From contig JAUCBJ010002486.1 in NCBI GenBank assembly GCA_032718475.1, positions 1 through 47,420 on the forward strand: 47,420 bases of DNA, written 5' to 3'. The notes beneath the pieces are model-generated. The model was not told where the DNA came from and made no database searches. It worked only from the letters and a program-made list of their open reading frames with translations. Shown here one piece after another: positions 14,745 through 45,892 of the stretch (positions within the stretch are counted from its first letter, which is position 1; every line of letters starts with the position of its first letter). The DNA comes from Nemertoderma westbladi. Taxonomy: Eukaryota > Animalia > Xenacoelomorpha. Both the position numbers and the translations under genes were made by a program.

Positions 14745-14873
14745 TGACGTATATGAGTAGGGGGGTTTGGTGAACTTAGTATGACGTATATTAATGGTGT
14801 TGATATAAGTATGGAAATAGAACAAACCAAGCATTAGGCCTAGGTGTACTGTAAATAGCAGAAGTACTACACA
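14745..14873 (-). repeat. 3' LTR of the Mag-like element (129 bp)
   Basis: Shares its first ~78 bp and last 15 bp with 19584-19690; preceded on the minus strand by purine-rich AGGAAAGAAGTA (PPT). Confidence 0.85.
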
Positions 14874-15039
14874 TACTTCTTTCCTGCATTGTTTTTGGTT
14901 GCCTAGCAACGATACACTATGTTGCTGAGTTACAGTGCTAGGATACCAATACAGCTAAACTTGATTGCTTTTACAGCACTAGAGCAAGAATATAGTATTT
15001 ATATTGTAGATATCTGTCTCCCGATTGTGTATTTCACAA

Positions 15040-18000
15040 CTATAGCGGGTCTGTGAATCCATAGCGCTGGGGGGGTCGGATATTGCGCCCAGAACGTGTA
15101 CTTGATTGAGTCCGTTGGTCCGCGCGTTGTGGTGGGGTTGGTGAGGCGATGTCGGCCCAGGTCGGGGGTGTCACTGGCCGAGGGGCCTCGGGCTCTGGGG
15201 CAGCGGGCGGAGCGATTTGCGGGATAACCGGGGGAGGGCTGGGTAGGATCGGGGTGGGAGTGGGTTGTCCACCTTCCGAGGCGGTGCGTGGGCGGAGGAA
15301 GACGCGGTTGCGCCGCAGGACGCGTCCACTCTCCTGGCGGACCATGTAGTCGTGGTTCGCCAGCGCCTCGACGACCACGCCTCGTCCCGTCCAACGCTTG
15401 GTGGTAGCGTCCTGGACGAGGACGGGTGTCCCTACGGGCATGACATGGAGGGGGCGGGTGCGGAGGTCGTAGGCTGCGCGGAGGTTGCTTTTAGTCTGTT
15501 CGGCAACCTCGTCGAGTTCCTGGAAGCTCTTCCTCCACTTGGGGTCGAATGAGTTGAAGTGGGCGGGCAAAGCTTCCCGGATATTGCGTCCGTAGAGGAG
15601 TTCCGCAGGTGAGCGCCCTCCATATCGTGGGGTGTTGCGGAACGCGAGTATACCCTGGGCTATAAGGTCGACGTCGTGGTCAGCGCCCCGGACGAGTCGC
15701 TTCATCGCCTTGACGGCGGCTTCGGCGTGGCCGTTTGTGCGGGGTAGGTGGGGCGACGACGGGTTTAAGTGAACCCCCCAGTTGTTGAGGAAGTTCTTCA
15801 CGGCCTCGGATACGAACTGTGGGCCGCCATCTGGATGGAACTCCAGGGGGACTGCTGTGGCGAGGAACAGGAGCCGGAGTTTACGGATGATGGCAGCGGA
15901 TGTCGTATCGGAACCGAGGAGGAACAACGTGGGCCAGCCGGTATATTCGTCGGTAGCGACCATGTAGTTGGTGCTGTCGACGACGAACAGGTCGGCGTGG
16001 ATCCTCTGGAATGGGCGGGTGGCCTCGGGGTTCCGTTGGATGGGTTCCGGTGCGTGGGAGGGCAGGGACGACTGGCAGGACTGGCAGCGTTCGATGGCGA
16101 CGGCGATGTCGTTCGATATCGTAGGCCACCAGACCGACCGGGCCGCGCGTTCCCGGGTTTTATTGAGTCCCTGGTGGGCGGCGTGGAGCAGTCGGAGGGT
16201 GTTGGGCCGGAGCGCCCCCGGGATGTAGATCTGCGGCCCACGAAGGATTACTCCATCATGGACCATCAGTTCCGTGCGGTGCTGGAAGTAGGGCCGCATG
16301 TCGTCGTTAGCCACGTTGTGGCGGGACGTCGGCCAGCCGTCCCGGATCGTGGCGAGGAGCGCCACATAGATCGGGTCGGCGGCACCGGCTGTCCGGATCT
16401 CCTGGAGGCGGGCATCGCGGTCGTCGATCGTCGGAATGGACTCGGCGAGAGCAGCGGAGACAATAAACTCGCGGTCGTTGTCATCTTCGGCTGCGAGGAC
16501 GAAGTCGTCCGGAGTGGGTTTTTTGCGTGGGCAGCGGGAGAACGCGTCGGCGACGAGGTGGCGGGCCCCCTTCTGGTGGCGCGCGGTAAAGTTAAACCGC
16601 GAGAGGGCCGTCTTCAGCTTTAGTAGCCGATCGTTGGTGACTTGGTCGAGTCGCCTGTCATTTAGGATGGGTATTAAGGGGCTGCAGTCGGTGACTAGTT
16701 CGAAGTGGTTCAGCCCATGTAGAAAGTAGCGGCATTTATGAGCCGCCCAGGCCGCCCCGAGGGCCTCCAGCTCGGCCATCCCGGACCAGTTCGCCTCGTG
16801 TTTGGCGAGTGTTCGGGAGCCGCACTGGATGGTGAGCCATCGGTTTGGGGCCGGGTCCCACTGCCGGAGGAGGAAGCCGAGGCCGTGGAGGCGCGAGGCG
16901 TCAGTCAGTAGTTCAGTCCGCCTGTCGGGGTGGAAACCTGAGAGGTATAGTGGACTCGACAGCGCGGTCCGGGTTGCCTCGAACGCGTTCTGGTGCTGCG
17001 GAAGCCAAACCCAGGCGGCCCTGTCCGTGTTGAGACTGCGGAGGGGGTCGACGAGTTGGGAGATCTCGGGAGTCGAGTTTCCCAACTGTTGGGCGAGGCC
17101 CAGGAAGGAACGGAGTTCGCGGCGGTTAGTTGGGGCCGGGAAGTGGCGGAGGTCGTCGGTGAGGGCCGGATCGATCCGGTAGTGCCCGTGACTGACGAGG
17201 TAGCCCCCGAACCGGACCTCGGGGAGGCAGTACTGGACTTTGTCGGTGTTCAGCGATACGTTGGCGGTGTCGCAGGCTGCGAGGACGCGGGCGACGGCCT
17301 CCGGGTGTTCCTCGGCCGTGTCAGTGTGGATGATGACATCCTCCACTATCCGCCCGATGTTGGGGACTCCGCTGAGAGCGCGCGCCATCCTCGCGTTAAA
17401 CACATCGGAGCTGCCGTGCCACCCCATGGGCATCCGCCGGTAGCGGAAGTGGCCGCGTGGGGTTGTGAAGGTGGTGAGACGGCGGCTGGCGAGGTCGAGG
17501 CCCACCTGGTGAAACCCTTTAAGACCGTCGAGAACGGTGAAGTAGCGGGCCGAGGTGGGAATTCTCGAGACGACGTGGAACGGAGAGGGGGAGAAGTAGT
17601 TGGGGCGAACTGTGGCTTTATTAAGTTCGCGTAAATCAACCGTTATGCGGACTTTGTTGGGGTCGCTTTTCTTCCGCGTAACGACCATCGGGCTGAGCCA
17701 CTCGCCCGGGTTGTTCTCGTCCCCGGCGGGCTCCAGGATCCCCATGGCGATCTGGTCGTCGAGTTCCCGGTTGAACGCGGCCTCCAGGTTGACAGGGATG
17801 GAGCGGTTCGTATAGGACTGGTTGGGCTGGGCGCCGGGGGTGAGGTTGATGGTGAGTTCCCCTCCCGCCATGACTCGGCACTGCCCTGACAGTGGGCGGG
17901 GGAAACGGCGGTGTAGGGCTTCCCAGTCGGAGTGGGCGGATGCTACTGGGGGTGCCGGAGCGCCCGGTGGGGGTGACGGTGTGTTGGCGTTGGGTTTGGG

Positions 18001-18207
18001 TGGCCCAACAGGGACTGGTGGCTGGGCATCGGTGGGTGGCGGCGGCGTGATTGGCTTGGTTTGTTCTATAACCATGTGGTTCGTAATTGCCGCCAAGTTG
18101 CCACCGCGGAGTATCGGACTCCGCAGTACTCCCAGGGTGAAACACACCCTTCGGGAGAGGAGGGGCTGTTGCAACCCGTCGAGCACCCATAGGTCGGTGG
18201 TGCACAC
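15040..18207 (-). CDS. pol: Gypsy Pol (RT, RNase H, integrase), 1055-aa open frame
   Basis: WLSPMVV, VDLRELN, LDGLKGFHQV, RMPMG, IVEDV, TDAS, ELEALG, LHAAHQG...CQSC, HADLF, PDGGPQF, NGHAE. Confidence 0.92.
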   Translation of the reverse strand: MCTTDLWVLDGLQQPLLSRRVCFTLGVLRSPILRGGNLAAITNHMVIEQTKPITPPPPTDAQPPVPVGPPKPNANTPSPPPGAPAPPVASAHSDWEALHRRFPRPLSGQCRVMAGGELTINLTPGAQPNQSYTNRSIPVNLEAAFNRELDDQIAMGILEPAGDENNPGEWLSPMVVTRKKSDPNKVRITVDLRELNKATVRPNYFSPSPFHVVSRIPTSARYFTVLDGLKGFHQVGLDLASRRLTTFTTPRGHFRYRRMPMGWHGSSDVFNARMARALSGVPNIGRIVEDVIIHTDTAEEHPEAVARVLAACDTANVSLNTDKVQYCLPEVRFGGYLVSHGHYRIDPALTDDLRHFPAPTNRRELRSFLGLAQQLGNSTPEISQLVDPLRSLNTDRAAWVWLPQHQNAFEATRTALSSPLYLSGFHPDRRTELLTDASRLHGLGFLLRQWDPAPNRWLTIQCGSRTLAKHEANWSGMAELEALGAAWAAHKCRYFLHGLNHFELVTDCSPLIPILNDRRLDQVTNDRLLKLKTALSRFNFTARHQKGARHLVADAFSRCPRKKPTPDDFVLAAEDDNDREFIVSAALAESIPTIDDRDARLQEIRTAGAADPIYVALLATIRDGWPTSRHNVANDDMRPYFQHRTELMVHDGVILRGPQIYIPGALRPNTLRLLHAAHQGLNKTRERAARSVWWPTISNDIAVAIERCQSCQSSLPSHAPEPIQRNPEATRPFQRIHADLFVVDSTNYMVATDEYTGWPTLFLLGSDTTSAAIIRKLRLLFLATAVPLEFHPDGGPQFVSEAVKNFLNNWGVHLNPSSPHLPRTNGHAEAAVKAMKRLVRGADHDVDLIAQGILAFRNTPRYGGRSPAELLYGRNIREALPAHFNSFDPKWRKSFQELDEVAEQTKSNLRAAYDLRTRPLHVMPVGTPVLVQDATTKRWTGRGVVVEALANHDYMVRQESGRVLRRNRVFLRPRTASEGGQPTPTPILPSPPPVIPQIAPPAAPEPEAPRPVTPPTWADIASPTPPQRADQRTQSSTRSGRNIRPPQRYGFTDPL

Positions 18208-18600
18208 AGTTCCGAGGGCGGTGCACTGGAGGGTGGCGTAAATATCCCCTTAAAGGTCCACCCGAGGCGGCTCCCATTGGCGAGGCGGGGTGCCAGCGGG
18301 GTCTCAGAGTCCTTGTGGCTCGTCATCGGTTGGCCGTCGGGGTGGCGGAGGTTCTCGTGGCGGCCTCCGAACGCCCTGTAGATCCGCCAAGGGATGGTGG
18401 TCACGTTGGCTCCGGAGTCCGGGAGGAACTGCAGCTCCGGGATACCGCGGGTCGGGTCCTTGGTGACCTGGAAGCCGATGGTCACAGTTTCGAGGGCCTC
18501 GAGTCTCTCCATGGCCGAGACGTCCGGGATGGAGTCCAGGTCGAGTCCGTCCAGGATCGTGGACCAGACCTGGGCGTTGTGGGCGGACTCGTGGTCGTCC
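18066..18600 (-). CDS. Gypsy aspartic protease, in a frame different from both gag and RT
   Basis: LQFLPDSGANVTTI in ORF 18066-18512; exact frameshift points not determined. Confidence 0.75.
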
Positions 18601-19516
18601 CGTCCGTTGTCGGGTTCCTGGGTGGTGTAGTCCTAGTCCGTGGGTTCGGCGTTGGGCGGCTGCGGCACATTCGGTCGTAGTGGCCGACTTGGTTGCAGTG
18701 GCGGCAACGGGCCGTAGCGCCCGGACAACGTTTGCCGGCCTGGTGTGGGGGGTAACCGCACTGAGGGCACTTGGAGGATGACTTCGGTTGTCGCTCCTCG
18801 TGGACCGGGCCCTGTTGGTAGCGCCGGGGTGCGGCTGTAACGCGGGTGACGGCGGCGGCGGGGTTCGAGGGCAGGGCGAGCGATGCGGCGTCCTTGCGCG
18901 CTGCCCAGACGGCTTGGGCGAGCCGCAGTGCGTCGCCGAGGGAACAGTCGTTGGGGAGACGGAGGAGTTGCTCTGTAACTTCTTTGTCGCCGAATCCCGC
19001 AGTGAACTGGTCCAGGAGGCGGTCCTCTTGGTGGGCCTCCTTAGTGGCGAGCGCGGCGAAGTCGCACTTGGCGGCCAGGTCCCGGAGGGCGACGAGGAAG
19101 GACTCCGGACTCTCCTCGGGGAGGCGGTGACGTCGGGCCAACTGCTGCCGGTAAACCCGTCGGTTGGTCCCGCCGTCGATGTGCCGCCCCAACTGATCGA
19201 TGACGTCCTCCGAGTTCGCGTTTTGTTCGGTAGTAAGGGCGAGCCCCTTTACTACCGCGTTAGTGGCGCGAGAGAACGCCGTAGTGAGCGCGGCGCGACG
19301 TAGACAGAGGGTGGATCGACGTAGGTCGTTGGTGACGGCAGCATCCGGGGGATTCGCCGGGTCGGAGGTGAACAGGTTGAGGAGTCCCGATGTGGCGAGG
19401 AAGGCGTCCCATTCATCCTTCCAGAGGTCCCACGTTGTCTTCTCCGACTCGATGTCGAAGGCGGGCGGGGAGCTTCGCAGGATGAAGGTGTGGGGGTTGC
19501 GTGGATCTGTCGCCAT
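18482..19516 (-). CDS. gag: Gypsy Gag
   Basis: Likely start MATDP at 19516; WDLWKDEWDAF, ESPESFLVALRDLAAKCDF, CPQCGYPPHQAGKRCP...CRHCNQVGHYDRMC. Confidence 0.88.
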   Translation of the reverse strand: MATDPRNPHTFILRSSPPAFDIESEKTTWDLWKDEWDAFLATSGLLNLFTSDPANPPDAAVTNDLRRSTLCLRRAALTTAFSRATNAVVKGLALTTEQNANSEDVIDQLGRHIDGGTNRRVYRQQLARRHRLPEESPESFLVALRDLAAKCDFAALATKEAHQEDRLLDQFTAGFGDKEVTEQLLRLPNDCSLGDALRLAQAVWAARKDAASLALPSNPAAAVTRVTAAPRRYQQGPVHEERQPKSSSKCPQCGYPPHQAGKRCPGATARCRHCNQVGHYDRMCRSRPTPNPRTRTTPPRNPTTDGTTTSPPTTPRSGPRSWTDSTWTPSRTSRPWRDSRPSKL

Positions 19517-19567
19517 GTTGTTAATGGGGAATAGTAGGAGTTCGTAGGTCCAGTTTATCGGCGTGTT

Positions 19568-19583
19568 CGGAAGCACTGCGCCA
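19568..19583 (-). promoter_or_regulatory. tRNA primer-binding site of the Mag-like element
   Basis: TGGCGCAGTGCTTCCG directly abuts the 5' LTR end; the TGG is complementary to tRNA CCA (tRNA-Ser-like, not verified). Confidence 0.8.
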
Positions 19584-19690
19584 TGACGTATATGAGTAGG
19601 GGGGTTTGGTGAACTTAGTATGACGTATATTAATGGTGTTGATATAAGTATGGAAATAGAAGTACAGAAGTATTACAGAAGTACTACACA
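19584..19690 (-). repeat. 5' LTR of the Mag-like element (107 bp)
   Basis: TG...CA termini, bounded by the PBS and the TSD. Confidence 0.85.
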
Positions 19691-26109: not shown

Positions 26110-26668
26110 CCAAAATTGTAACATTACTTAACGCCGTTAGTATTAACAACGAGTTGTTATTTAGCACTTTACAACTTTAGAGGACATTACAGCGTTGTAA
26201 TGACCTGTACATTTAGTATTGTATTTGGTGTTATAGTTTACGTGGTAACCCATGACGGCGTTAAGTAATGTCCACTGCGGGGACATAAGCCGTCATTGGA
26301 TACCACCTAAACAATAGGAGGAAATTTGCCTGACAGCCAGATAGGCCTACTGCATTACTATCAGGGGTATAGCTATTAATAACCAGTAGGGCCTAGCTAT
26401 ATTATTATAACATTGCTCCAAACGCCACCATAAATATAAGCTAACTTATTTATAACATAATTTATGTCATTTTTACATTTATTTATACAGCAACTAATAT
26501 AATTTGTGCAGTTTCTATCACTTATAATATATGTACAATATAGAATTATATTCTCTAAATGCCGTGGATTTTCAAAATTTTTATTTTATTCGATTTAACT
26601 TTGTTAAAAGATTACATTAAGTCCTCATTTGTATTTGCTATATCTATTTGTACGATGATTAGTCAAGT

Positions 26669-26752
26669 TGTTCAGTGACTCAGTCGGTAGAGCGTTGGAA
26701 ATTATATGTAGTGTGTATTGAGTTCGAATCCTAGTAGGTGCGAATTATTTTT
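26669..26752 (+). promoter_or_regulatory. tRNA-like Pol III A/B-box cassette in the 5' LTR (A box mutated in this copy)
   Basis: TGACTCAGTCGGTAGAGC ... GAGTTCGAATCC ... T-run; compare the intact copy at 44078. Confidence 0.6.
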
Positions 26753-26817
26753 TGTGCAGAATTTCAACTCATTTAAATTGACCGCTACAAATTAATTGCA
26801 TTTGCTTGAAGTAAGGT

Positions 26818-27088
26818 TAACCAATGAGACTGTAGTTATTAGATTGTAACCAATGTCGTACAAGTTATATATTTGCTGGACCAATAGCTATCTTTAAAAA
26901 CCTGTTAGAACCTATAGAACAATCGAGAATTTTCTCGATTGATTGCGGCACAAATTTGCTATATAAAGGTGCGATTTGTTCATTAGTTATTCAGTCTATC
27001 TTAGCATTCTTCTTCTGTTTCTTACATCCATTAGTTATTTCAGATTACATTGTTTATTGTAATAGTTATTGTTTGATTTTGTAATAAA
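26818..27088 (+). promoter_or_regulatory. Predicted LTR Pol II promoter and poly(A) signal
   Basis: Three CCAAT boxes (~26820, 26850, 26881), TATATAAA at 26960-26967, Inr-like TCAGTC at 26991-26996 about 30 nt downstream, AATAAA at 27083-27088. Confidence 0.6.
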
Positions 27089-28448
27089 AGTTAGAAATAC
27101 TTGTCACATCTGCCCTTTTCTATCTGTTTTACTATGCTTCACCACGGAGAACTCAACTGAGGGACAGGATGGCTGGCTAAACATCGGGCCACAGCAATGA
27201 ACGGGAACATCTAAGGAATGTAGACAGGAGACAACCCGCAATATCACTCTTAGTTATTCGCCCATCGCCTGAAAGGTTAGACAGCGTTCGATGCCTTGCT
27301 ACCTAAGTATAAGACCAAAGATCGAAGGTAGAGGTAGTGACACGCTGTACGCCTAAAATTACATCTAGGAACTGTACTGTTTTAATTCAGGAAAAAACCG
27401 CAGTAGACCTTCATATTCCTACGGGGGAGGGGGAGAGCAGGCAGAGATACTAGTACGCAGATAGGACGTAGGCACACCGGTACAAAGCATACACATTGGT
27501 AGGGTGCAGCAAACTGTACGCCTAACTCTTGCTAAGTACAGGTGCGTCTGTGACTATTTGTAGTACAACGGTGTCCATTGCATTAGAACTTGTAGGCTAG
27601 GAGGGTTACTGTGTTTCACCTGAATTAGGATTGTACCGTTCAGGCGGTAGGGCAGTTTACGACTAGGCGCAAATAAATTGAGGCTAATTAGGGATACTAA
27701 CATCTACCGTGTCCCCGCCGACATCCTGATAGGAAGTTACCAAGCCCACCTAGGTAACCAAAATTCTAGATAGGACGCCAGGCTAGCTATTAGTAACCGT
27801 ACGCCTACTGTAGTAAACTAACACATTTCTTCTTAGTATTAGGGACCTGGTAAATAAAAAATTGCCGAATTCTGGGCGTAGTATTAACCTTATGCCCGAA
27901 TTTGAGTCCTGGAAATACGCAAGAGGGGAAGGAGCCTTATTATTCGTGAGTATTGGACCTACAAGTTACAAAATTAGAATATTCGTAAAATGCACACCGT
28001 ACCCAGTAATTATATATATGAAGGAGCAAAACTGATCTTGACTGTTCAGAATTAACACACGCGCGTTAGAAATTATTTACACCTCAAAATATATAAAATT
28101 AACTTTTGTCCGTACTGCACTTTGCCCGCTAGTTAGACATCTCCAAATCTCTGCACCTAGCTAGCGTCCTTTTCGCCCAACCATATAAATCACACCGCGG
28201 CAAAGTATACGAGCCCCTTAGTCCGTCAGTGAGTCAGCCTGATTTTAGGATTCGCTGCGCGGGATTTTGTTTTATCGAAGTTTGTCTGTTCGTAGACTGT
28301 TTTCTGCCTCACCGGTTATAAGAGACCGATACTGCATATATATTCGCTTACTTGGAGTTTACTGTTTTGGTGAGAAGGTCGGATTTATGATTTGATCCAC
28401 AAACTTTACAGTAAGATATTGCAGGTATTGTTACTGTCGCTTCGAATA

Positions 28449-28460
28449 GTAGGAATATGA
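28449..28460 (+). promoter_or_regulatory. Non-tRNA primer-binding site candidate (self-priming)
   Basis: GTAGGAATATGA starts at the first base after the LTR and is the exact reverse complement of TCATATTCCTAC at 27411-27422; no TGG-initiated PBS is present. Confidence 0.7.
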
Positions 28461-29300
28461 GTATTATTTAACATATTTCCTAGAATAGTAGGAATATGTT
28501 TTACTGAACTACGGTTCGGTAGGACTAAAGTTATTTGAAAAATTTTGTATTTTGAGGTAAAAGTTTATATTTGATTAGCTAAGTGCTAATTTTTTGAAAT
28601 AAAATTTGATTTGAACCGCGTGTAAAATATTTTGGAATTGAATACCGGTGTTTAAAAGGGTTTAAATACCATATTGTACCGGTACAAAATTTTCGTAAAA
28701 GTAAAACCTAACTCTTTTGTTTTTCAGGATTCAGAACTCATTTCTAGGCTGTAACGAGAGCAAGACCGTGTTTAGCAAGTTTGGGAGATAGATAACCCAA
28801 CAACTTTGGTTGGGAAAATCGCACTTCGTCCGCAACGCTGGAAACGGAAAGGTTCACGTCCGGTTTGTATCTGGGAATCTGTTTTTCTGGAGAATTATTG
28901 GAGTGGGTGAGTTCGAAAAGTTGCATTAATCAGTTAGGCATTACCGTATTAGTTAAAATTATTGTGGGTTCCACTGTCTCAAGTATTTATGCATTCCGTA
29001 TGATTTCTTTGTTCATTGCTGAATTAGTCCGTAATTATTTGTATTTAATTTACCTTTTGATAACGCATATCGTTATCCGATTTATTTGTTATAAAATTGG
29101 CCGTTAGGCTAATTTTATTATATACTTATTCCGTGACATTTATTTGCTGTAAAATTGGCCGTTTAGGCTAATTTTATCCATTTGCTATAAAATCGGCCGG
29201 TAGGCTAATTTTATATGACTGTAATTAGTACCGTTTAAATATAAATACGGTAAATTTGATACTTTGACACTCACATTTTACTTGACTTACAACTACCGAA

Positions 29301-30138
29301 ATGAGTGACAAACAAGACTATACGAAGAATACACCTACCGACTATGACTCATGTGACGCGGATAAGTCAGCAGCGGAAGAACTACAGGGGAAGACTCGCG
29401 AGCCTACCGAACCTACACCGTGTGCGTCACCAGTACATCCAACGGGAGTACCGGATGCCGTAGTACGAGGCGACGGCAGGACCGAGGATTTTCTAACTGT
29501 TCCGCAACCTAGATACAGGGAAACGGACATGGTAAGTTCAGTAGGAAGCCAGGAGAGTGTGGTTAGAAGCGTCGGAGGCTACATGGCGCATATTACCAGG
29601 AGTATTGGGGAAGGCCAACGCATATTAGACGAGTTAACCGCTCCGATGTCTCGGTTTGAGTTCTACACCCTCCAGGTTAGAGTACAAAGTAGAGTACATA
29701 AGTCCGTAGATAATCTAATTGGTCTACAAGATCTAGCTAGACAGAGACAGGACGTGGATACTCAACTTAGAATCCTCGAGAAACTAATGATCGCTAGAGA
29801 GAAACTGATTCAGTTTAAGTCGACGATTAGGCAGATACAACAGGAACAAGCGGACCAGTTGTTAGGTGAGTCAGTTTCGGACGAATTATTGCAGCCCGAG
29901 GAAGAACAGGAACTGTACCGACTAGATGGACAATTGAAACATCTGACGGACCACTTACGTATGTGCGGCGAAGACGTCGGCGATTTGGAAACCGTGCCGG
30001 AATATACGAGGGAAACATCACCCGTACAAATCGAATCGGCACCGGGAATACTGGACCAATCGTTAGTGAGTATTCGCAGCGAAATTGGCGAGATAAGTAT
30101 AGTGACGTCAGAAATTTCCAGACAGCAACAACAGCACT
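29301..30138 (+). CDS. gag: BEL Gag-Pol polyprotein, 5' exon (N-terminal helical region)
   Basis: ATG at 29301, open up to the intron; joins the 31340 frame as ...RQQQQHY|TSDRQQREVEE when 30139-31339 is removed. Confidence 0.8.
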
Positions 30139-31339
30139 ACCTAAAGAGGTGAGGTCTCTATAGCGGTGGTGCTAACAGGCGGCGGCGGACTCGTGAGGGT
30201 CTGGGGGCACGTTAAATTGTTGTTATAGTGCTAGGGAGTCACTGAAGGCCCTCGTGTCTAACGAACCATGAATTGCCATGGTGCCGTGGTATCGCCTAGT
30301 CGGCCTGTTGCCGTACTGCCAGTCCTGTACACAGTAGGGGTGGTGGCATGGCGTGATTTGTGGCACATGTGGCGCGAACTATGTTTTGTATGTGGGCGAT
30401 CAGTGGCAGTTTGCTTGGGGCTTGGATGGTTCCATTGACCGTCAGCTGTTCCGTTTTTTTGATACTATATGTTATTGTCTCCATGTTCAGCTGACTTGGT
30501 CTTTGGTGGCATTGGAATAAACCGTCGGGTCTTGAGCTTTCTGTTGCTGTGGGTACGTGAGTACACGTGATTGTATGTGTGGCCACTGCGAGTGGGTATG
30601 GGAACCCTTGCCAGTTGGACAAGACGCCGCTGGTATTAGTAGGACCATACTTTACTGCGCCCCAGCATACTTTGTGCACACAAAGTTATTTTACCCTGTC
30701 GGTAAAATAAAGTACTCTCGATTTGCCTCCGGTCGATACAATTTTGTCCCTTCTGATTTTGTCTTTCCCGATTTTGACCCCGATTTTGTCTTTACCCGAT
30801 TTTGTCTTTGTGTGTGCATGGTATGTGTCAGATTTGTGTTTACCGTAGTGTACTTGATTTCGTGAACATCTGTTGAGTACACGTGTACAGGACGGGTAAG
30901 TGGTTACTTGTTCCTAGCTTTCGAGCTAGTCAATATTGTTTGTGGAACTTACTTCCCCTCAATATTGCCGGCGAGGCAGGTGAAAACGTGTCAATATTCC
31001 ATGTTGGGTAGCGCAAGCCCGCTTGGGACAAGACCGTCGGTTAGGTCCAAGGGCGACCTTGGTGCTCGATCGCTATCGACTGGTCCACCTGCCGGTTGAC
31101 TCTTTGTTATACTTTGAGTTGGCTCAATGTACAGTCAGGCCACAGTAAGTTGACAGTAGCCGCCCATCTGGCTACACGTTCGACGAGCTGTGCTGGTGTG
31201 ATCGGGGGACCGAAAACAGAACCCGGGAAGCATCAGGCCACCCTCCGGCCCGGTCTGATAATAACATCTGTCGGACTGGCCCCAGGGGTGGTGGAAAGGG
31301 GCTGCCTCGTGGGTGCGCCTCGGGGAGGAGCCCAGAAAG
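30139..31339 (+). ncRNA. Group I self-splicing intron (IE-like core), 1201 nt
   Basis: P1 AGCACU(30133-38)/GGUGCU(30168-73) with U.G at the splice site. P3 GGCAGGUG(30975-82)/CACCUGCC(31086-93). J3/4 AAA. P4 ACG(U)GUC/GACCGU. P6 CGGUU/GAUCG. P7 U(C)GACUG(31076-82)/CAGUCA(31132-37). P8 31094-31124. J8/7 CAAUGUA. Terminal G at 31339. Excision restores the frame. Confidence 0.88.
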
Positions 31340-34300
31340 ACACAAGTGATAGACAACAACGGGAAGTTGAGGAACAAGCTCAACTGTTGACGGCACAAGC
31401 GGCGGTAGAAGAAGAAAAACTACGCGTTGCAAATGTTGCGAGAATCTCTCATCTGCAAGAACAAGCTGAGTTGGAAGCAGCCGAAATGGAAAGGCTAGAG
31501 TTGGACATTGCACAACAAGCGGCAGCGGCCGAGTTAGCGCAACGAACAGCAGCGGCCGAGTTAGAGCGACAAGCGGCAGCAGCAGCGGCCGAGCTAGAGC
31601 GACAAAGGTTAGTTTCAGAAGCGAGAGCCGAGATGAAAAAACGGCAAATAAAGGCTCAATCAGCTATACGACAAGCGGAGTTCGAGGCGCAACAACAACA
31701 GACGGAACAACGCGAGAAAGAAGTTAAACTTCATTTCAAACTCGAGAAGAAGGCGAGAGAATTAGCCAACGCGAAGGAAGATCTGGATCTACAAGCCCGC
31801 GATCGATCGATGAGATCTCGTGACGGACATGATTTGGACCAGATAGAGGTAAGGCACCGCCAAATTCAGGAATGAATGAAGGAAGGAAGTGTAGGGGCAC
31901 CTGGGCGAGAAAGACAATTGGTCAAAGACTTATGTCAAAGATTCCCTCAAGTGAGTCAATCTTCGACACCAAAACTCGTTACGCACTACACGTACCCAAT
32001 GACGTTTAGGCCTACAAGGCCTTTGGATTCAAACGCTGTCGTCCGACCACCGTTTAATCAGTTTACATCGCAATCGACAACTTCGAGGAAGACTTGTGAG
32101 CCTACCGAACAACGGAGAACAGTGGATACGCGACCGTTTAATCAGTTTACATCGCAATCTACAACTTCGAGGAAGACTTGTAGCCTACCGAACAACGGAG
32201 ACCAGTGGATGATGTTCCGAAACGGAATGTTAGGATTCAGACAGCACAACGGACGCGAGCACGTCGACCACCGTATCCAGGTGACAGTAGTACTTCGAGT
32301 GAATCGGATTACCCGAAACGTGAGGTATTTAGAACAGGAGCGGCCGACGAATATAAACGTGAGCGTTCAGATAACTCCTTTATCGATAATCCTCCACAAA
32401 ATACACCAACACAGAAAGCGTTACAACCAACGGACGCAATTAGTACGCAACAACTCGCCGAAATAATGCGCCCAGTTGTCAACAAGTTGGCCCAGATAGA
32501 GGAACGTTTAGAGGAAACTCAAACCGATAGTTCGCGAGGTAACGAGTTCGAACACTTTAGACATCCGAAGCAGCAAAGAAAACAACCCTCGAGAAACACC
32601 TCGTATCAAGGAAAAGCGCCAAGACGAGAGAACATCAACTTGATTGCCAACCAAGGACGCGAAACTTTGAACGTGGCCGAGGAGATAGCGAAATTCGCAG
32701 CGAGACAAGGTTTACCGGTGCAACAACCACCGAAGTTTTCAGGTAACTCGAAACATTGGCACACCTTTGTGGACTACATCGAAACCCAAATAGCAGCGTG
32801 CGCCTTTACATCGAGGGAGAAATTCAACTACCTGCTACAAATGCTGACGGGAGAACCGAAACGTCTAGCGGAGACCTTTGTCGGTGTACCAGACGCCTTC
32901 GAACTAGCGTATGATCGCTTAACTTCGATTTACGGAGGCACGGTGAGTATGGCTAAGTCAGTGATAGAAGAACTCTGTAAAGGGGGGGCTATAACAAAAC
33001 CCGTTGACTTACTAAAATTAGCTGACGAGATTAAGAACGCCATTACTACACTACGCTCGATTGGACAACTTGACTACGCGAACACTCCGACAGTCCTATT
33101 AAAAATAATAGGAAGATTACACCATCGACTTCGTCGGGAGTGGCGAAAGATAGAATATCAGCGAGAAGAGAGAGGCGGATTCTTGAAGTTGGAAGACGTC
33201 TACTTACTGATATCCAGAGAGGCAGTAGTTGAGACGCGTTCGAACTACACGGACCAACATATTGTGGCGGAGGGAATAACATTACCATCCTCGAACCGAC
33301 AAAAACCTCAAACAACATCCACCAAGACGGTTACTTACGCCACATCGACCGACACCCGACAATTGTCGGACAGTAATAAGGTATCCGCACCAATTGGAAC
33401 CAAACAGATCCGACAGCAACTGACCACAGACTTTAGTGGTTGCCAATATTGCGAACGGCTAGGTAAACGACATACTAGCCATAAACTAAGAGGATGTCGA
33501 CTATTCCGCGAATTGAATTCGGAGGAACGACGACTACAAATACGGCCATTGGACTCTTGTTGGCGGTGTACGCTACATGGACATGTCCGTAAAGACTGCC
33601 CAAATACAGACACTTGTCCTTCTTGTGGACGCAATCATGACGGCTTGCTACATACAGACAGTCATACGCCGACCAAACGCTTCACCAGGGAACACCCGGA
33701 AGCGGCAGCAAGATGCAACACAGCATATAAGGGTCGAGAGTCGAAAACAACACCGACCTTCGTGACGCACATTAGAGATTGCTTCTCGGAACAATCAGGA
33801 TCGTCGGATGAAGAGTCGGAAGACGAAGACGTTTACTTTGATACTGGAGACGAACAACCATCGATTGCACTTCTGACGCCTGATCAATTAAAGGGGTTTA
33901 GTATAATTCCTGTCAAGATTACGGGCACAAAGGGGAGCAAACGGATCTACGCTATCCTGGATTCAGCCTCATCTCATAGCTACGTGGATGAGAAAGTAGC
34001 TGATGTTGTGACGGATCTCCGACAAGGTAAGAACGTCAGTTACACCGTAAGTAGTATGCATGGACAACGTGCAATACCAGTGACACGAGTTAAGTTGAAC
34101 TTAGACACTCTTCTTCCGAAATCGCAACATAGCGAAAGGGAGAGGTCTTTGTTACCCTTTAAAGATTTAACCTTTGCGGCCACAAAGGACTTTAGTAACC
34201 TACTAGGTCCTGTCCCAGAACAATCCTTGGAGGACCATAAGTACTTCAGACACCTTGGTGTACCTGAATGTCCTGTCAACTATAGGTCGGTAGCAATGCT

Positions 34301-37300
34301 GATCGGGACAGATCAATTCAACCTACATCAAGTGTGGGAAACCAGACCATCGGCAGTCGTAGCGGGAAACGCATACGCCTGTAGAACGCCGATAGGGTGG
34401 TATACTCGAGCGCCTATGCGCACACTGGATATAAGTGACGAGGAAGACGATATACAAAGTACATGTAGTTTATTAACTACAACTTCGACTCATTCCTTTT
34501 CACACGACGTAGACCATACTACACTACATTCAACAAAACATGACACGACGTGTGTAGCGAGAAGTATGATAAGTCACAAGGAGCAGCTAATCCACCAGGT
34601 GAGTTTAGAACTTGGGAAGAAGACGAGTCAGCCAGAGATTCCATCGACGACAGATGATAATGCCGGAAGGCTTGCGAGTCTACCTACACCAATAACCTCA
34701 ACAATGCCCGTCGATATCGATGACGACGCGTTAAGAAATCATCAAGTGGAACAAGCTGCACTGGACAAAGAACTAACGGAGAAGACTATCAGTTGGTTAG
34801 AACAAGATACAGCCGAACCTGGTAGCTACGAACCATGTATGTCGGAACAAGAGAAACAATCTTTGAAGATCATGGAAGATACTATCCGCCAGACGAAAGA
34901 CGGACATTATGAGGTAGGGATGCTATGGCGTAACCAACGTCCTAAACTCATAAATAACTATCCGCTAGCCTTAAGACGTTTACACTCAATACGACAACGT
35001 CTATTAAAGGACGAGAAAGCCCATCTGCAGTATAATACTCAGATGGAGACGTATTTGACCAAAGGATACGCTATCCGAATGACTAACCCAGAGATTGTGA
35101 CTGACCAGACATACTACTTACCACATCACTACGTGAGACATCCCGACAAACCAGACAAAGTACGTGTAGTTAATGACTGCGCGGCTCTGTTTGAGGGAAT
35201 GTCCCTCAATAGTGAGTTGATGGACGGACCAAACATGAACAATTATCTCATGGGGGTGATTATGTGCTTCCGTCAGCGTCAAGTAGCCTTTACTTGTGAC
35301 GTCGAAGCTATGTTTCACCAAGTGCGAGCGTTAGAGCGAGACAGAGACAGTTTGAGGTTCCTCTGGTACCCGGAAGGAGAATTAAGTCTACCACCGGCGA
35401 CTTACCAAATGCAAGTTCGCGTTTTCGGTGCCAGGGACAGCCCAAACTGTACGATGTACGCCCTAAAGCAAGCCGCTAGGGATCAGAAACATATATATGA
35501 CCCAGAGATAATCAAGATCGTAGAACGTGACTTTTACATGGACGATGGTTTACAGAGTTGTGACACAGTAGAACGTGCTATTACAGTAGCACATCAATTA
35601 CGGGACTGCTTAGCGGGCGGAGGTTTTAACCTCACCAAATTCGCCTCAAACAGTGCCGAATTGGTAGACTCATTCGGAACGACTGAGCGTGGAGGTGGTG
35701 ACATTGACCTAGAGTTCGAACCACTACCGACGACCAAGGTGTTGGGGCTCTTTTGGGACCCAAACACGGACAACTTTCGAGTGAAGGTGAGACTGGACAC
35801 TCAAGAAAACACTCTGACAAAGAGATCCTGCTTGTCAAAATTGAGTCGATTGTTCGATCCATTAGGATTCATCAGCCCAATAATACTGCAAGCCAGAATT
35901 TATATGCGCAGTATTTGGAAGGATGGACTGATATGGGACGAGCCGATCTCATCAGAACAAGTGGACTTATGGAAAACCTGGGAGGCAGAATTATCTTCGC
36001 TAGAGGATTATTCCATACCCAGAGTGTACTTTCCATTACAAACGACGTTTCCTGACAACTTGGAATTACATTGTTTCTCCGATGCCAGTGACAACAGCTT
36101 TGGTGTGGCAGCGTATTTACGCAGACAAGTAGACTCAGACGAGTTTGATGTTTCGCTCATTACTTCTAAGGCTAAGACCATGCCTAATAAGTATATGACG
36201 ACACCACGCGCTGAGCTACAAGCCGCAACCCTGTCAACCACAATCGTGAACCTTATACAGACGGAACTACAGTCAAGTTTACAGATATTTTATTGGACTG
36301 ACGCGACGTTGGTTTTGTTTTACATAAACAACGACACACTTGAATTCAAGCCATTCGTAGCTAACCGTCGCGCAGAAATTCTAGACCGTTCAATAAAGGA
36401 AGATTGGCGACATTGTCCCGGACCACAAAATCCAGCCGATATTGCGTCGCGAGGAATGATGCCTGAGGAATTCTGTAAACCGGAGAACAAAGAATTTTGG
36501 CAGCACGGACCACAATTCTTGCAAAGATCAACACTACATTGGCCGCCACTATACGACAACAAGTCTAACACTATCCCTAAAGACGCGGAAATTAAAAAAC
36601 CAAAGAAAGGGAAAGCAAAGAAAAGGACGGCGGCTAAACTCAAGAAAAAACCAAAGGCGAAATGGAAGGATATAACTTCAAAGGTCAAGAACGGAAGACT
36701 TGCGAGCCTTTCTACACCAGACGTATCGCCAGACAAACAACCAGACGCGTTACTAGACGGTCAACCAGACGTTTTGCCAGACACGTCACTAGATATTTCG
36801 CCGGATGTTCCGCGAAACATTTTACCAGACATGTCACAAAATGTTCTACCAGACACTAGTAACATATTGACAAATAGTAAAGCCGCAGTTTCCCTATTGG
36901 AGCGGCCTTGTATTGACAAACTACCAAATCTGACACACTTGAGCAACCATAAGCACAGTGAAACCTCATGTATTACAGATGTGGGTAGTACCTACGCTAA
37001 TGTAAATACAGGTGTTACTTTGCGCTCAAGAGACATACCAAACTTGCAACCTATGGCGAGACCTGGGATTAATATCGGCAGAAAAATAAGTTTACCAAAA
37101 CCCAGTGACCCCATAGAGTTCAAACCACCATTAACGATCGACTTACAAAGTACTGACAACCAAGGTAAGAAAACAAGGAAGGACAAATTACTTGTAGACC
37201 CGGACGGATCAACAGTCAACAAGGGAATACCTACCGGCGGACCCGTGGGCCCTTCTAGTAAATCAAAATCTTCCAAATTCTCCATTGACTTACCTGATGA

Positions 37301-38825
37301 CGTCACAAATACTTACGTCGACCGCATTGTAAACCTAACAGATTCTTGGACAAACGCTTGCCGAAAATTAGCGTGGATTGTACGTTTTGTACAATACATT
37401 AAAGGCCAACGCGACTTTACACGTCGACTTACATTGACTGAGATTGAAAGGTGTGAAATTAAATTAATTCGCCATTACCAACTGCGATATTTCGCACGCG
37501 AATTCACATCTATAAATCAAGGTCAACCAATCAAGTCGTCACCAATATTGAGTTGGAGTCCGATAATTTATAATGGCTTAATTTGTCATAAATCTCGGCT
37601 TCAAAACATTGACTTTAACACAAACTTTAGATACCCAATAATAATACCGCAACATCACGAATTACAACGTGCAATGATACTGGACGCACATTTACATCTG
37701 AAACACGCTGGAAGACACCACTGTCTTTCCTACTTACTTACAAGATTTGTATTAATTAGACCCAGTAAAGCGTTAAGTTCAGTGACACGTACGTGTATTA
37801 TTTGTAAAAAGGTACACTCTAGAATAGGTACTCAAGAAATGAGTGAACTTCCACAAGCACGACTCCAAGCATTCAGACCACCTTTTACAGAGACTGGAAT
37901 TGATTGCTTTGGTCCCATACATACGAAACGCGGACGTATACTAGTAAAACGCTGGGGACTGATTTTCACATGTATGTCCAGTAGGGCAGTTCATATTGAA
38001 CGTGTGATGGATCTTTCCACCAACGCGTTTATACTAGCATTGCGGCGATTTATCGCTAGACGCGGACTAGTGAAATGCTTGTACTCAGACCAAGGGACAA
38101 ACTTTGTTGGTGCCCGAAATGAAATTGCTAGAGCCTTTAAGAAATTAGATCATGATCAAATCTCAAACGAACTACGTCCTTACAAGATTGTTTGGAAGTT
38201 TAATCCTCCAGATAGTCCATGGAGAGGCGGAGTCTGGGAGAGATTGATTAGATCTATAAAAACAGCCATGGCAAAAGTAATTCCAGTAAACCACATTTTG
38301 ACAGACGACCAACTGACAACACTGTTTGTTGAAATCGAGGCAATACTAAATACTAGACCAATAGTATTAGTACCCGATGACAAACAATCCCAGTTTGCTT
38401 TAACACCAGCACACCTGCTTATGCAGGCACCGACTACATTAACGCCTATTTCTTTTCCAATGGAAGGCGATAGCTACGGTAGAAAAGCGTGGAAAATCAC
38501 GCAACTACTAGCTAACAAATTCTGGGAAATATGGCAAAACCATTATTTGCCCTCTATTTCTGCCAGAACAAACTGGTACAATAACACCCGCGCATTAAAG
38601 CCAGGAGATCACGTGCTGTTAGCAGAAGTGAATCTAAAAAGACGCTTCTGGATAACAGGTGTAATTTTAGCCACACATCCATCTATGGATGGAGTGACAA
38701 GAACTGTGACGGTACGGACAATTGACGGTCGTACAGTAGACAGACCGACTCAACGTCTCGTACTTCTTGAAGAGACTCGTAACGAGTCTGGAGACTACAA
38801 ATCTCCAACAAATGTTAGTAAATAA
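31340..38825 (+). CDS. gag-pol: BEL Gag-Pol polyprotein, 3' exon (two lesions: TGA at 31873-31875 and a 1-nt deletion near 32181)
   Basis: Coiled-coil region; PPKFSGNSKHW (BEL Gag core); three Cys/His knuckles; protease YAILDSAS; RT YLPHH...FYMDD; RNase H LHCFSDAS; integrase H-H-CIIC, IDCFGP, SDQGTNF, GVWERLI; FWEIWQNHYL. Repaired, spliced product is about 2774 aa. Confidence 0.93.
32050..32212 (+). repeat. 84-bp tandem duplication in gag; the second copy lacks one base
   Basis: CCGTTTAATCAGTTTACATCGCAATC... twice; TTGTGAGCC versus TTGTAGCC explains the frameshift between ORFs 31876 and 32205. Confidence 0.92.
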
Positions 38826-43947: not shown

Positions 43948-45857
43948 TATAGAATTATATTCTCTAAATGCCGTGGATTTTCAAAATTTTTATTTTATTC
44001 GAATTAACTTTGTTAAAAGATTACATTAAGTCCTCATTTGTATTTGCTATATCTATTTGTACGATGATTAGTCAAGTGGTTCAGTAGCTCAGTCGGTAGA
44101 GCGTTTGAAATTATATGTAGTGTGTATTGAGTTCGAATCCTAGTAGGTGCGAATTATTTTTTGTGCAGAATTTCAACTCATTTAAATTGACCGCTACAAA
44201 TTAATTGCATTTGCTTGAAGTAAGGTTAACCAATGAGACTGTAGTTATTAGATTGTAACCAATGTCGTACAAGTTATATATTTGCTGGAACAATAGCTAT
44301 CTTTAAAAACCTGTTAGAACCTATAGAACAATCGAGAATTTTCTCGATTGATTGCGGCACAAATTTGCTATATAAAGGTGCGATTTGTTCATTAGTTATT
44401 CAGTCTATCTTAGCATTCTTCTTCTGTTTCTTACATCCATTAGTTATTTCAGATTACATTGTTTATTGTAATAGTTATTGTTTGATTTTGTAATAAAAGT
44501 TAGAAATACTTGTCACATCTGCCCTTTTCTATCTGTTTTACTATGCTTCACCACGGAGAACTCAACTGAGGGACAGGATGGCTGGCTAAACATCGGGCCA
44601 CAGTAATGAACGGGAACATTTAAGGAATGTAGACAGGAGACAACCCGCAATATCACTCTTAGTTATTCGCCCATCGCCTGAAAGGTTAGACAGCGTTCGA
44701 TGCCTTGCTACCTAAGTATAAGACCAAAGATCGAAGGTAGAAGTAGTGACACGCTGTGCACCAAAAATTACATCTAGGAATTGTACTGTTTTAATTCAGG
44801 AAAAAACCGCAGTAGACCTTCATATTCCTACGGGGGAGGGGGAGAGCAGGCAGAGATACTAGTACGCAGATAGGACGTAGGCACACCGGTACAAAGCATA
44901 CACATTGGTAGGGTGCAGCAAACTGTACGCCTAACTCTTGCTAAGTACAGGTGCGTCTGTGACTATTTGTAGTACAACGGTGTCCATTGCATTAGAACTT
45001 GTAGGCTAGGAGGGTTACTGTGTTTCACCTGAATTAGGATTGTACCGTTCAGGCGGTAGGGCAGTTTACGACTAGGCGCAAATAAATTGAGGCTAATTAG
45101 GGATACTAACATCTACCGTGTCCCCGCCGACATCCTGATAGGAAGTTACCAAGCCCACCTAGGTAACCAAAATTCTAGATAGGACACCAGGCTAGCTATT
45201 AGTAACCGTACGCCTACTGTAGTAAACTAACACATTTCTTCTTAGTATTCGGGACCTGGTAAATAAAAAATTGCCAAATTCTGGGCGTAGTATTAACCTT
45301 ATGCCCGAATTTGAGTCCTGGAAATACGCAAGAGGGGAAGGAACCTTATTATTCGTGAGTATTGGACCTACAAGTTACAAAATTAGAATATTCGTAAAAT
45401 GCACACCGTACCCAGTAATTATATATATGAAGGAGCAAAACTGATCTTGACTGTTCAGAATTAACACACGCGCGTTAGAAATTATTTACACCTCAAAATA
45501 TATAAAATTAACTTTTGTCCGTACTGCACTTTGCCCGCTAGTTAGACATCTCCAAATCTCTGCACCTAGCTAGCGTCCTTTTCGCCCAACCATATAAATC
45601 ACACCGCGGCAAAGTATACGAGCCCCTTAGTCCGTCAGTGAGTCACCCTGATTTTAGGATTCGCTGCGCGGGATTTTGTTTTATCGAAGTTTGTCTGTTC
45701 GTAGACTGTTTTCTGCCTCACCGGTTATAAGAGACCGATACTGCATATATATTCGCTTACTTGGAGTTTACTGTTTTGGTGAGAAGGTCGGATTTATGAT
45801 TTGATCCACAAACTTTACAGTAAGATATTGCAGGTATTGTTACTGTCTCTTCGAATA
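43948..45857 (+). repeat. 3' LTR of the BEL element
   Basis: 1910-bp direct repeat of 26539-28448, followed by TSD TACAA. Confidence 0.97.
44078..44162 (+). promoter_or_regulatory. tRNA-like Pol III A/B-box cassette in the 3' LTR
   Basis: A box and D arm TAGCTCAGTCGGTAGAGC (44085-44102), B box GAGTTCGAATCC (44129-44140) at tRNA spacing, T6 run at 44157-44162. Acceptor and anticodon stems do not pair. Confidence 0.75.
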
Positions 45858-45892
45858 TACAATCATTTGGTAATGTTAAAATTTTGGAATAA

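Follow-up and report, generated by a model that had tools for sequence, protein, structure and literature searches.

According to two reviews, group I introns of the nucleus are restricted to rRNA genes in eukaryotic microbes (PMC3679873, PMC10964413). Group I introns are also listed in a few non-bilaterian animals and in five shark species (PMC10964413), and a 2025 database places animal introns in placozoans, corals and sponges only, most of them mitochondrial IB4 introns (PMC11835236). The nearest printed precedent is that of endogenous Polinton-like viruses of protists (PMC12220804), which are integrated elements with group I introns in protein genes. These are however DNA elements, without an intron-purging reverse-transcription step, and their introns are detectable with RF00028. 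The IStrons of bacterial IS605/IS607 (PMC10690162, PMC13521648) also combine a ribozyme with a transposon, and their splicing conflicts with another use of the same RNA, but in IStrons the transposon lies within the intron and is thereby concealed in host mRNA, whereas here a retrotransposon hosts the intron. Within the listings and abstracts of the open-access literature searched, no group I intron was found in an LTR retrotransposon or in an animal nuclear protein gene. Self-splicing introns in planarian transposons are reportedly described in a preprint, which the literature searches did not retrieve.

The closest sequences found are introns in protein genes of giant viruses (Nucleocytoviricota), which have the same core and the same P2, P2.1 and P9.1 motifs; no description of this viral ID-like family was found in the literature listings searched. 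The viral introns have about 400–600 nt and belong to DNA viruses, whereas the element treated here passes through RNA in every cycle. Group ID introns, from fungal and algal mitochondrial cob, cox1 and nad5 genes (GISSD), have core segments like those of the present intron. The ID rows compared are about 200–330 nt long, organellar and with a short P9; in place of this compact periphery and organellar location, the intron described here has 1,210 nt, P2, an expanded P2.1, P9.1 and P9.2, no ORF, and a nuclear element as its host. The introns of nuclear rDNA (IC1, IE) are nuclear too, and an IE-like periphery (CUAGUC...GGCRAG around P2.1, as in IE2 rows) is shared with the present intron.

The window, i.e., the whole stretch of 47,420 nt of Nemertoderma westbladi DNA that was analysed, holds a 19.3-kb BEL/Pao LTR retrotransposon with the intron block in its gag gene (Table 1). 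From its sequence, the block is read as an ID-like group I intron in the gag-pol of a multicopy BEL/Pao family, one that likely self-splices from U30138 to G31348 and thereby permits translation of Gag-Pol.

Table 1. Coordinates of the retrotransposon, its genes and its intron (positions in the window)
Feature	Position	Strand	Evidence or remark
Left target-site duplication TACAA	26534..26538	.	Right copy 45858-45862
5′ LTR, 1,910 bp, ends TAT...ATA	26539..28448	+	1891/1910 identical to 3′ LTR, gap-free
gag exon 1 (279 codons + 1 nt)	29301..30138	+	Last base is splice-site U30138
P1, U30138.G30168	30133..30173	+	A30133-U30138 with G30168-U30173, plus 3-bp extension
Group I intron, 1,210 nt, no ORF	30139..31348	+	Fold, homology, sister copies
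P2 and start of P2.1	30174..30305	+	Homologous to giant-virus introns (viral 5′-domain profile, alignment)
P2.1 expansion, ~570 nt, G/U-rich, ORF-less	30370..30935	+	Folding z-score
Catalytic core P3-P8, P7 guanosine site, ID-like	30969..31139	+	107.2 bits, E about 1e-30
P9, P9.1, P9.2, further hairpin; P9.0 G31138.U31347; terminal G31348	31138..31348	+	
gag continuation	31349..32466	+	Interrupted in window copy
Open 2,213-codon frame	32184-38825	+	DUF1759 Gag core, RT region, Peptidase_A17, integrase (zinc domain), DUF5641 (Pfam)
Accessory frames, 908 and 248 codons	39370..42843	+	Without membrane segment
3′ LTR	43948..45857	+	Pairs with 5′ LTR

The element is assigned to BEL/Pao by its Pfam domains, its LTRs and its target-site duplication, 5 bp being the length expected of BEL/Pao. 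Protein relatives of the 2,213-codon frame in this class have 25–46% identity, and the named ones are from a mollusc and mosquitoes. The 99.0% identity of the LTRs and the presence of the TACAA duplication show that the window copy is young and integrated. Downstream of the block its gag has a stop codon (31873-75) and a frame change near 32180, the latter adjoining an 84-bp duplication at 32049-32181; with gag broken in this way, the window copy cannot itself show function. Gag exon 1 matches no Pfam family, and protein searches with it gave no relatives, then one low-complexity match. None of six window proteins was matched in a protein cluster collection, and a BEL relative of the element was not found in viral contigs. 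The window ORFs tested are those of mobile elements only, with no host gene among them; PMC3118150 reports BEL/Pao elements from metazoans only. Since the accessory frames lack a membrane segment they are not env-like. The 908-codon frame gives a weak 3′-5′ exonuclease lead (atlas 0.79), and the 248-codon frame displays two Cys/His knuckle-like motifs.

The 5′ LTR is not followed by a TGG primer site, and the 12 nt immediately after this LTR (28449-28460) are the exact complement of a contiguous LTR stretch, 27411-27422, a complementarity that suggests self-priming. A tRNA-like stretch is seen by eye in each LTR (26660-26740 and 44070-44150), where ARAGORN found nothing. In the 5′ leader, a pyrimidine-rich AG at 28728 suggests that gag is preceded by an ordinary spliceosomal intron. 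A separate GC-rich element of the Ty3/gypsy type lies on the minus strand at 14745-19675, with terminal repeats of ~90 nt and an open RT-RNaseH-integrase frame; no group I core was found there.

The preliminary description, which was made from the sequence alone, had proposed that the gag ORF of an LTR retrotransposon is interrupted by a group I intron, with a gag stop at 30152. The stop is read at 30150-52, within the P1 loop and 11 nt inside the intron. All of the helices named in that description, U30138.G30168 included, are found in their places in a pair-by-pair check, and they form a P3-P7 pseudoknotted core with P4, P5, P6 and P8 in the correct order. P1 pairs with the gag exon at 6/6 positions. 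P3 (30975-82/31086-93) has Watson-Crick pairs at 8/8 positions, followed by an A.C, and J3/4 is AAA; P4 (30986-92/31032-37) carries one bulged, extra U. P6 is present, with the arm CCAAGG-GCGA-CCUUGG, and J6/7 is CUA. P7 (31076-82/31132-37) displays the bulged C31077 and the guanosine-site pair G31078-C31136, and P8 is present, with CAAUGUA as J8/7. The P9 domain has a folding z of -2.8, and the P2.1 expansion has -2.6, compared with -1.0 for a gag stretch of the same size. A descriptor consisting of P3, AAA, P7 and J8/7, composed after the block had been seen, was met in 0/5000 dinucleotide shuffles of the block. The block had also been called GC-richer than gag, but its GC content is about 0.50 versus 0.48–0.50 in the surrounding gag, and its compositional signature is instead a switch from A-rich to T-rich. 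Six-frame translation of the intron gave no long ORF outside the gag frame that could represent a homing endonuclease, and two frames of 100+ codons in the P2.1 expansion have no Pfam match.

A search of the block with RF00028, which had been suggested as a check, gave no match at the gathering threshold or at E<=10. However RF00028 likewise misses eight control loci that have clear homologues (5 viral, 3 mitochondrial), and its negative result is therefore uninformative and refutes nothing. Similarly, in PMC6125680, this model gave no significant archaeal matches where subtype models found 39 introns.

Homologues were sought with a 19-base pattern of P7 and J8/7 taken from the window. The pattern is present at 29 viral loci, and 28 of these, many of them redundant, hold the same core with a complementary P3 of their own. 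The viral homologues interrupt NCLDV genes for capsid, DNA polymerase B, RPB2 and D5. A metagenome scan with the same pattern gave four loci, namely three mitochondrial nad5 introns and the locus L030; fungal mitochondrial nad5 introns are among the homologues, at least one of them with a LAGLIDADG ORF. Thirteen matches came from prokaryote genomes, but 12 of these resemble AT-rich introns of the mitochondrial ID type and are probably contaminating DNA. Annotated phages gave no match, and no viral contig has the exact P7-P9 junction of the window.

A covariance model, R1, was built from 26 homologous cores with the window excluded. It matches the window at 30969-31139 with 107.2 bits (E about 1e-30), the next window match having 10.2, although the core score is partly circular because the search for homologues was seeded with a pattern of the window. 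Across the 26 homologues, 98.2% of cells are paired in the drawn structure, and 0/500 shuffles reach the covariation result. Among these homologues, both partners vary in 7/9 pairs of P3, and the outer pair of P7 is U-A in some and C-G in others. As the seed came from the window, profiles were also built from viral peripheral domains alone. These match the window in the expected order at 30172-30305 (E 2.4e-11) and 31139-31237 (E 0.039), and have no match at the corresponding place in four mitochondrial-type controls; the peripheral matches are less circular than the core score.

These results leave little of the proposal that the block is an ordinary insertion, either a non-autonomous transposon or foreign DNA, whose resemblance to a group I intron arose by chance. 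The lack of an Rfam match and the presence of a CAACAAC repeat on both sides of the block could be taken in its favor. However, CAACAAC is glutamine-coding exon sequence that flanks the site in intron-free copies too, and no terminal inverted repeat >= 30 nt is listed. The 107 bits were obtained against an independent model, and no shuffle of the 5000 reproduced the descriptor. Chance resemblance is effectively refuted by the covariation, the core score and the peripheral profile matches together, and is assigned a negligible probability. The block is almost certainly a group I intron within gag, and the original identification is upheld by the R1 score, the peripheral profiles, copy variants and intron-free copies.

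The core segments GAAAACGGUCAA, AGACCGUCGG, AUCGCUAUCGACUGG and AAUGUACAGUC agree by eye, nearly base for base, with curated GISSD ID rows (supplement of PMC6125680). They differ from the IE2 rows of the same supplement, a comparison that covers IE2 only within IE. Thus the core appears ID-like, by eye against the GISSD ID rows, with a periphery that is that of viral introns; the earlier subgroup guess of IE/IC does not agree with this. A tree computed for 34 cores (114 columns) places the window next to the locus L085 (support 93), and both are within a clade that holds 14/19 viral introns (support 96). The inner branches are weak and the sampling is biased by the pattern, so that a donor is not established.

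L085 (1-1299) is a 1.3-kb contig in a bacterial MAG record. It shares with the window the core (99 bits) and the motifs of P9 and P9.1, and its ORF-poor, G/T-leaning 5′ region is > 900 nt long. The contig has no host gene, and may be eukaryotic DNA that represents a second case of the long form. L030 (1917-2170) has a related core of 43.5 bits, without a normal P3, and a P9 nearly identical to that of the window. Its core is situated ~500 nt behind a frame that resembles eukaryotic tyrosine-recombinase clusters (atlas 0.96–0.97; Phage_integrase in 10–61% of members), and L030 is possibly a second kind of mobile element with an ID-like ribozyme. At loci L002, L013, L034, L052, L053 and L014, splicing apparently takes place after G (G-C) or C (C.A) and not at a U.G pair, as judged by eye. 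L008 displays two such introns 555 nt apart, with an 11-nt exon between them, at the 3′ end of a capsid gene.

With respect to the 5′ splice site, the G of the U.G pair in P1 occupies the sixth position upstream of AACAGG, and this spacing is shared with viral homologues, whose 5′ ends in this comparison are fixed by their host proteins. This shared G/AACAGG register supports U30138. At the 3′ side both G31339 and G31348 are in frame, and the preliminary description had preferred G31339, with an H-Y-T-S-D junction, and had given G31348 as the alternative. In 15/15 placeable viral introns, the penultimate base, next to the terminal G, is paired with the base that directly follows P7; the viral 3′ ends were placed by eye from exon continuity in 15/19 cases, with L034 ambiguous and L006, L065 and L074 unplaced. 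In the window, U31347 pairs with G31138, whereas A31338 (a G in other copies) does not, which fits G31348. The second P9.0 pair, present in 13/15 viral cases, is missing in the window (G.G). In addition, a divergent copy from run X4 stays in register with the window as far as 31348, apart from a C for U31347, and then continues into unrelated sequence. Intron-free copies are colinear with the G31348 site only, and one of them reads Y-R-Q-Q across the site. P10 does not discriminate between the two sites (3/4 vs 2/4 in-register pairs, by eye). Since P9.0, the divergent X4 copy and the intron-free copies agree, the 3′ end is best placed at G31348 and not at the first choice. Joining U30138 to A31349 restores the frame exactly with an H-Y-R junction, and the predicted intron has 1,210 nt.

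The P1 loop also contains, at 30149, a sequence similar to a spliceosomal donor, GUGAGG, which includes the stop codon. The spliceosome might thus remove the block by way of AG/GUGAGG, with the ribozyme fold as a passenger, and an in-frame UAG at 31352 could be cited in support. However, of 27 AG sites in 31046-31419 six are in frame, and the sole in-frame AG with a pyrimidine tract (0.75) is a GAG at 31118, within P8; the in-frame YAG sites have 0.30–0.50 pyrimidines. Removal by the spliceosome leaves the conserved core unexplained as well, and is regarded as very improbable.

Other copies of the element were compared in the contigs of four runs of DNA type, which come from three studies and bear the same organism label, and in those of X5, a presumed RNA run under a second label. 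Variants were read from contig summaries limited to the best-supported rows, in one of the listings the best 40 of 480 substitution rows. Among the rows listed, 23 variant sites are in 30930-31400, with 0/23 in the 56-nt catalytic core (P about 0.04), and no variant is listed in the guanosine site, J6/7 or J8/7 across the four runs. Two paired changes are present in other copies, A30978G with U31090C in P3 and C31047U with G31062A in P6a, the latter at equal contig depths in X3, X4 and X5; the pairing of variants is inferred from contig depths and not from phased molecules. In addition, U31046C converts a U.G pair to C-G. On the other hand, a P9.1 pair is disrupted by U31194C, for which the rows list no change of the partner base, U30965C breaks a drawn pair whose partner changes in one loose end only, and a single X3 contig has U31347G, which would break P9.0. 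An alignment of copies had been suggested earlier as a check; the comparison of contigs supports the proposed intron, with intron-free copies, paired changes in P3 and P6a, and an invariant catalytic core.

At 31210-31218, many other copies resemble the viral P9.1 loop (variants at 31210, 31211, 31217 and 31218), and the window copy has drifted there. A minority of contigs have a cluster of changes at 30169-30175, in the guide strand of P1. They might reflect an intron located elsewhere whose guide has been altered, but the summaries do not include the 5′ exon of these contigs, and the cluster is not counted.

Intron-free copies are found in three of the four runs. The joints are 30133-31348 in X2 (depth 256) and 30133-31347 in X3 (depth 411), versus depths over position 30169 of 2843 and 5167 in the same runs; in X4 the joint is 30114-31392, with 64 letters between and a depth of 34. 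In X4 the depth over the intron is ten times higher, which is not taken as a measure of copy number. A further X3 contig reads QQEFY-RQQ across the intron site. The junction letters of the intron-free copies differ from those of the predicted spliced product, and the copies therefore look like sister subfamilies. The exact spliced junction, which is what loss through reverse transcription of spliced RNA would give, is absent among the DNA joints listed, from contigs that drop rare variants. X5 has few contigs, which are pieces of the intron, and neither junction is covered.

The copies also bear on whether the intron is still active. It could be a descended group I intron in which splicing is lost or rare, in non-autonomous copies mobilised by the proteins of intron-free sisters, with the fold kept for packaging or simply young. 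The intron-free copies in three runs, the lack of an exact spliced junction among the listed DNA joints and the broken gag of the window copy are consistent with this, and myxomycete introns that depend on host factors also have large ORF-less expansions (PMC3679873). However, the catalytic core is invariant while the periphery varies, and the stems show paired changes. P1 fits the gag exon at every one of its six pairs, and the splice sites restore the frame exactly. Moreover, a family that never translates should not keep an open pol frame of 2,213 codons. Loss of splicing is thus considered improbable, if less so than removal by the spliceosome, and these features of the sequences argue that active copies probably retain functional self-splicing.

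The unspliced frame ends at 30152, before capsid, RT and integrase, and Gag-Pol therefore needs removal of the intron. Group I chemistry consists of two transesterifications, started by a guanosine in P7. In the element, a free guanosine bound in P7 would attack the U.G site in P1, and the 5′ exon would then attack G31348, held by P9.0, so that the exons join in frame. Proteins would be made from the spliced RNA, and unspliced RNA would be packaged and reverse transcribed by them. As no endonuclease is encoded, we infer that the intron is inherited through unspliced RNA; the numerous, variable and young intron-bearing copies point to unspliced RNA as the usual template for reverse transcription. 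This retention of the intron may be a selected switch, e.g., with the P2.1 expansion as a packaging signal, or may simply reflect slow splicing.

For an intron without an endonuclease in an element that has its own RT, reverse splicing is the simplest route of entry. The intron probably entered by reverse splicing into the RNA of an intron-free ancestor, followed by the action of the RT that the element encodes. Its donor probably belonged to the lineage of introns that is known today from giant-virus genes, though the transfer could have run in either direction. Mobility by reverse splicing and reverse transcription has been postulated, with complete evidence lacking, according to PMC3679873. 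A wider proposal may also be made, i.e., that a giant-virus-type ribozyme has been domesticated as a switch between mRNA and genome, with the 570-nt P2.1 expansion as packaging signal, that it has spread by reverse splicing and RT to other retroelement families, and that it belongs to a family of long ID-like introns of eukaryotic mobile elements which stays hidden from Rfam and includes L085 and L030. This proposal is tentative, and as a whole rather unlikely.

The puzzle posed by the locus is that a self-splicing intron, which an RNA-replicating element would be expected to lose, is retained in this family. A recently active LTR element with an intact intron in a protein gene breaks the rules that such introns are found in rRNA genes only, in microbes only and, in animals, mainly in mitochondria of early-branching lineages. 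The intron class is unseen by Rfam, and more cases have therefore likely been overlooked in animal genomes and giant viruses. Mobility through reverse splicing and reverse transcription can be tested on this element in nature and, if the switch reading is true, the element would be a natural case of this long-postulated route.
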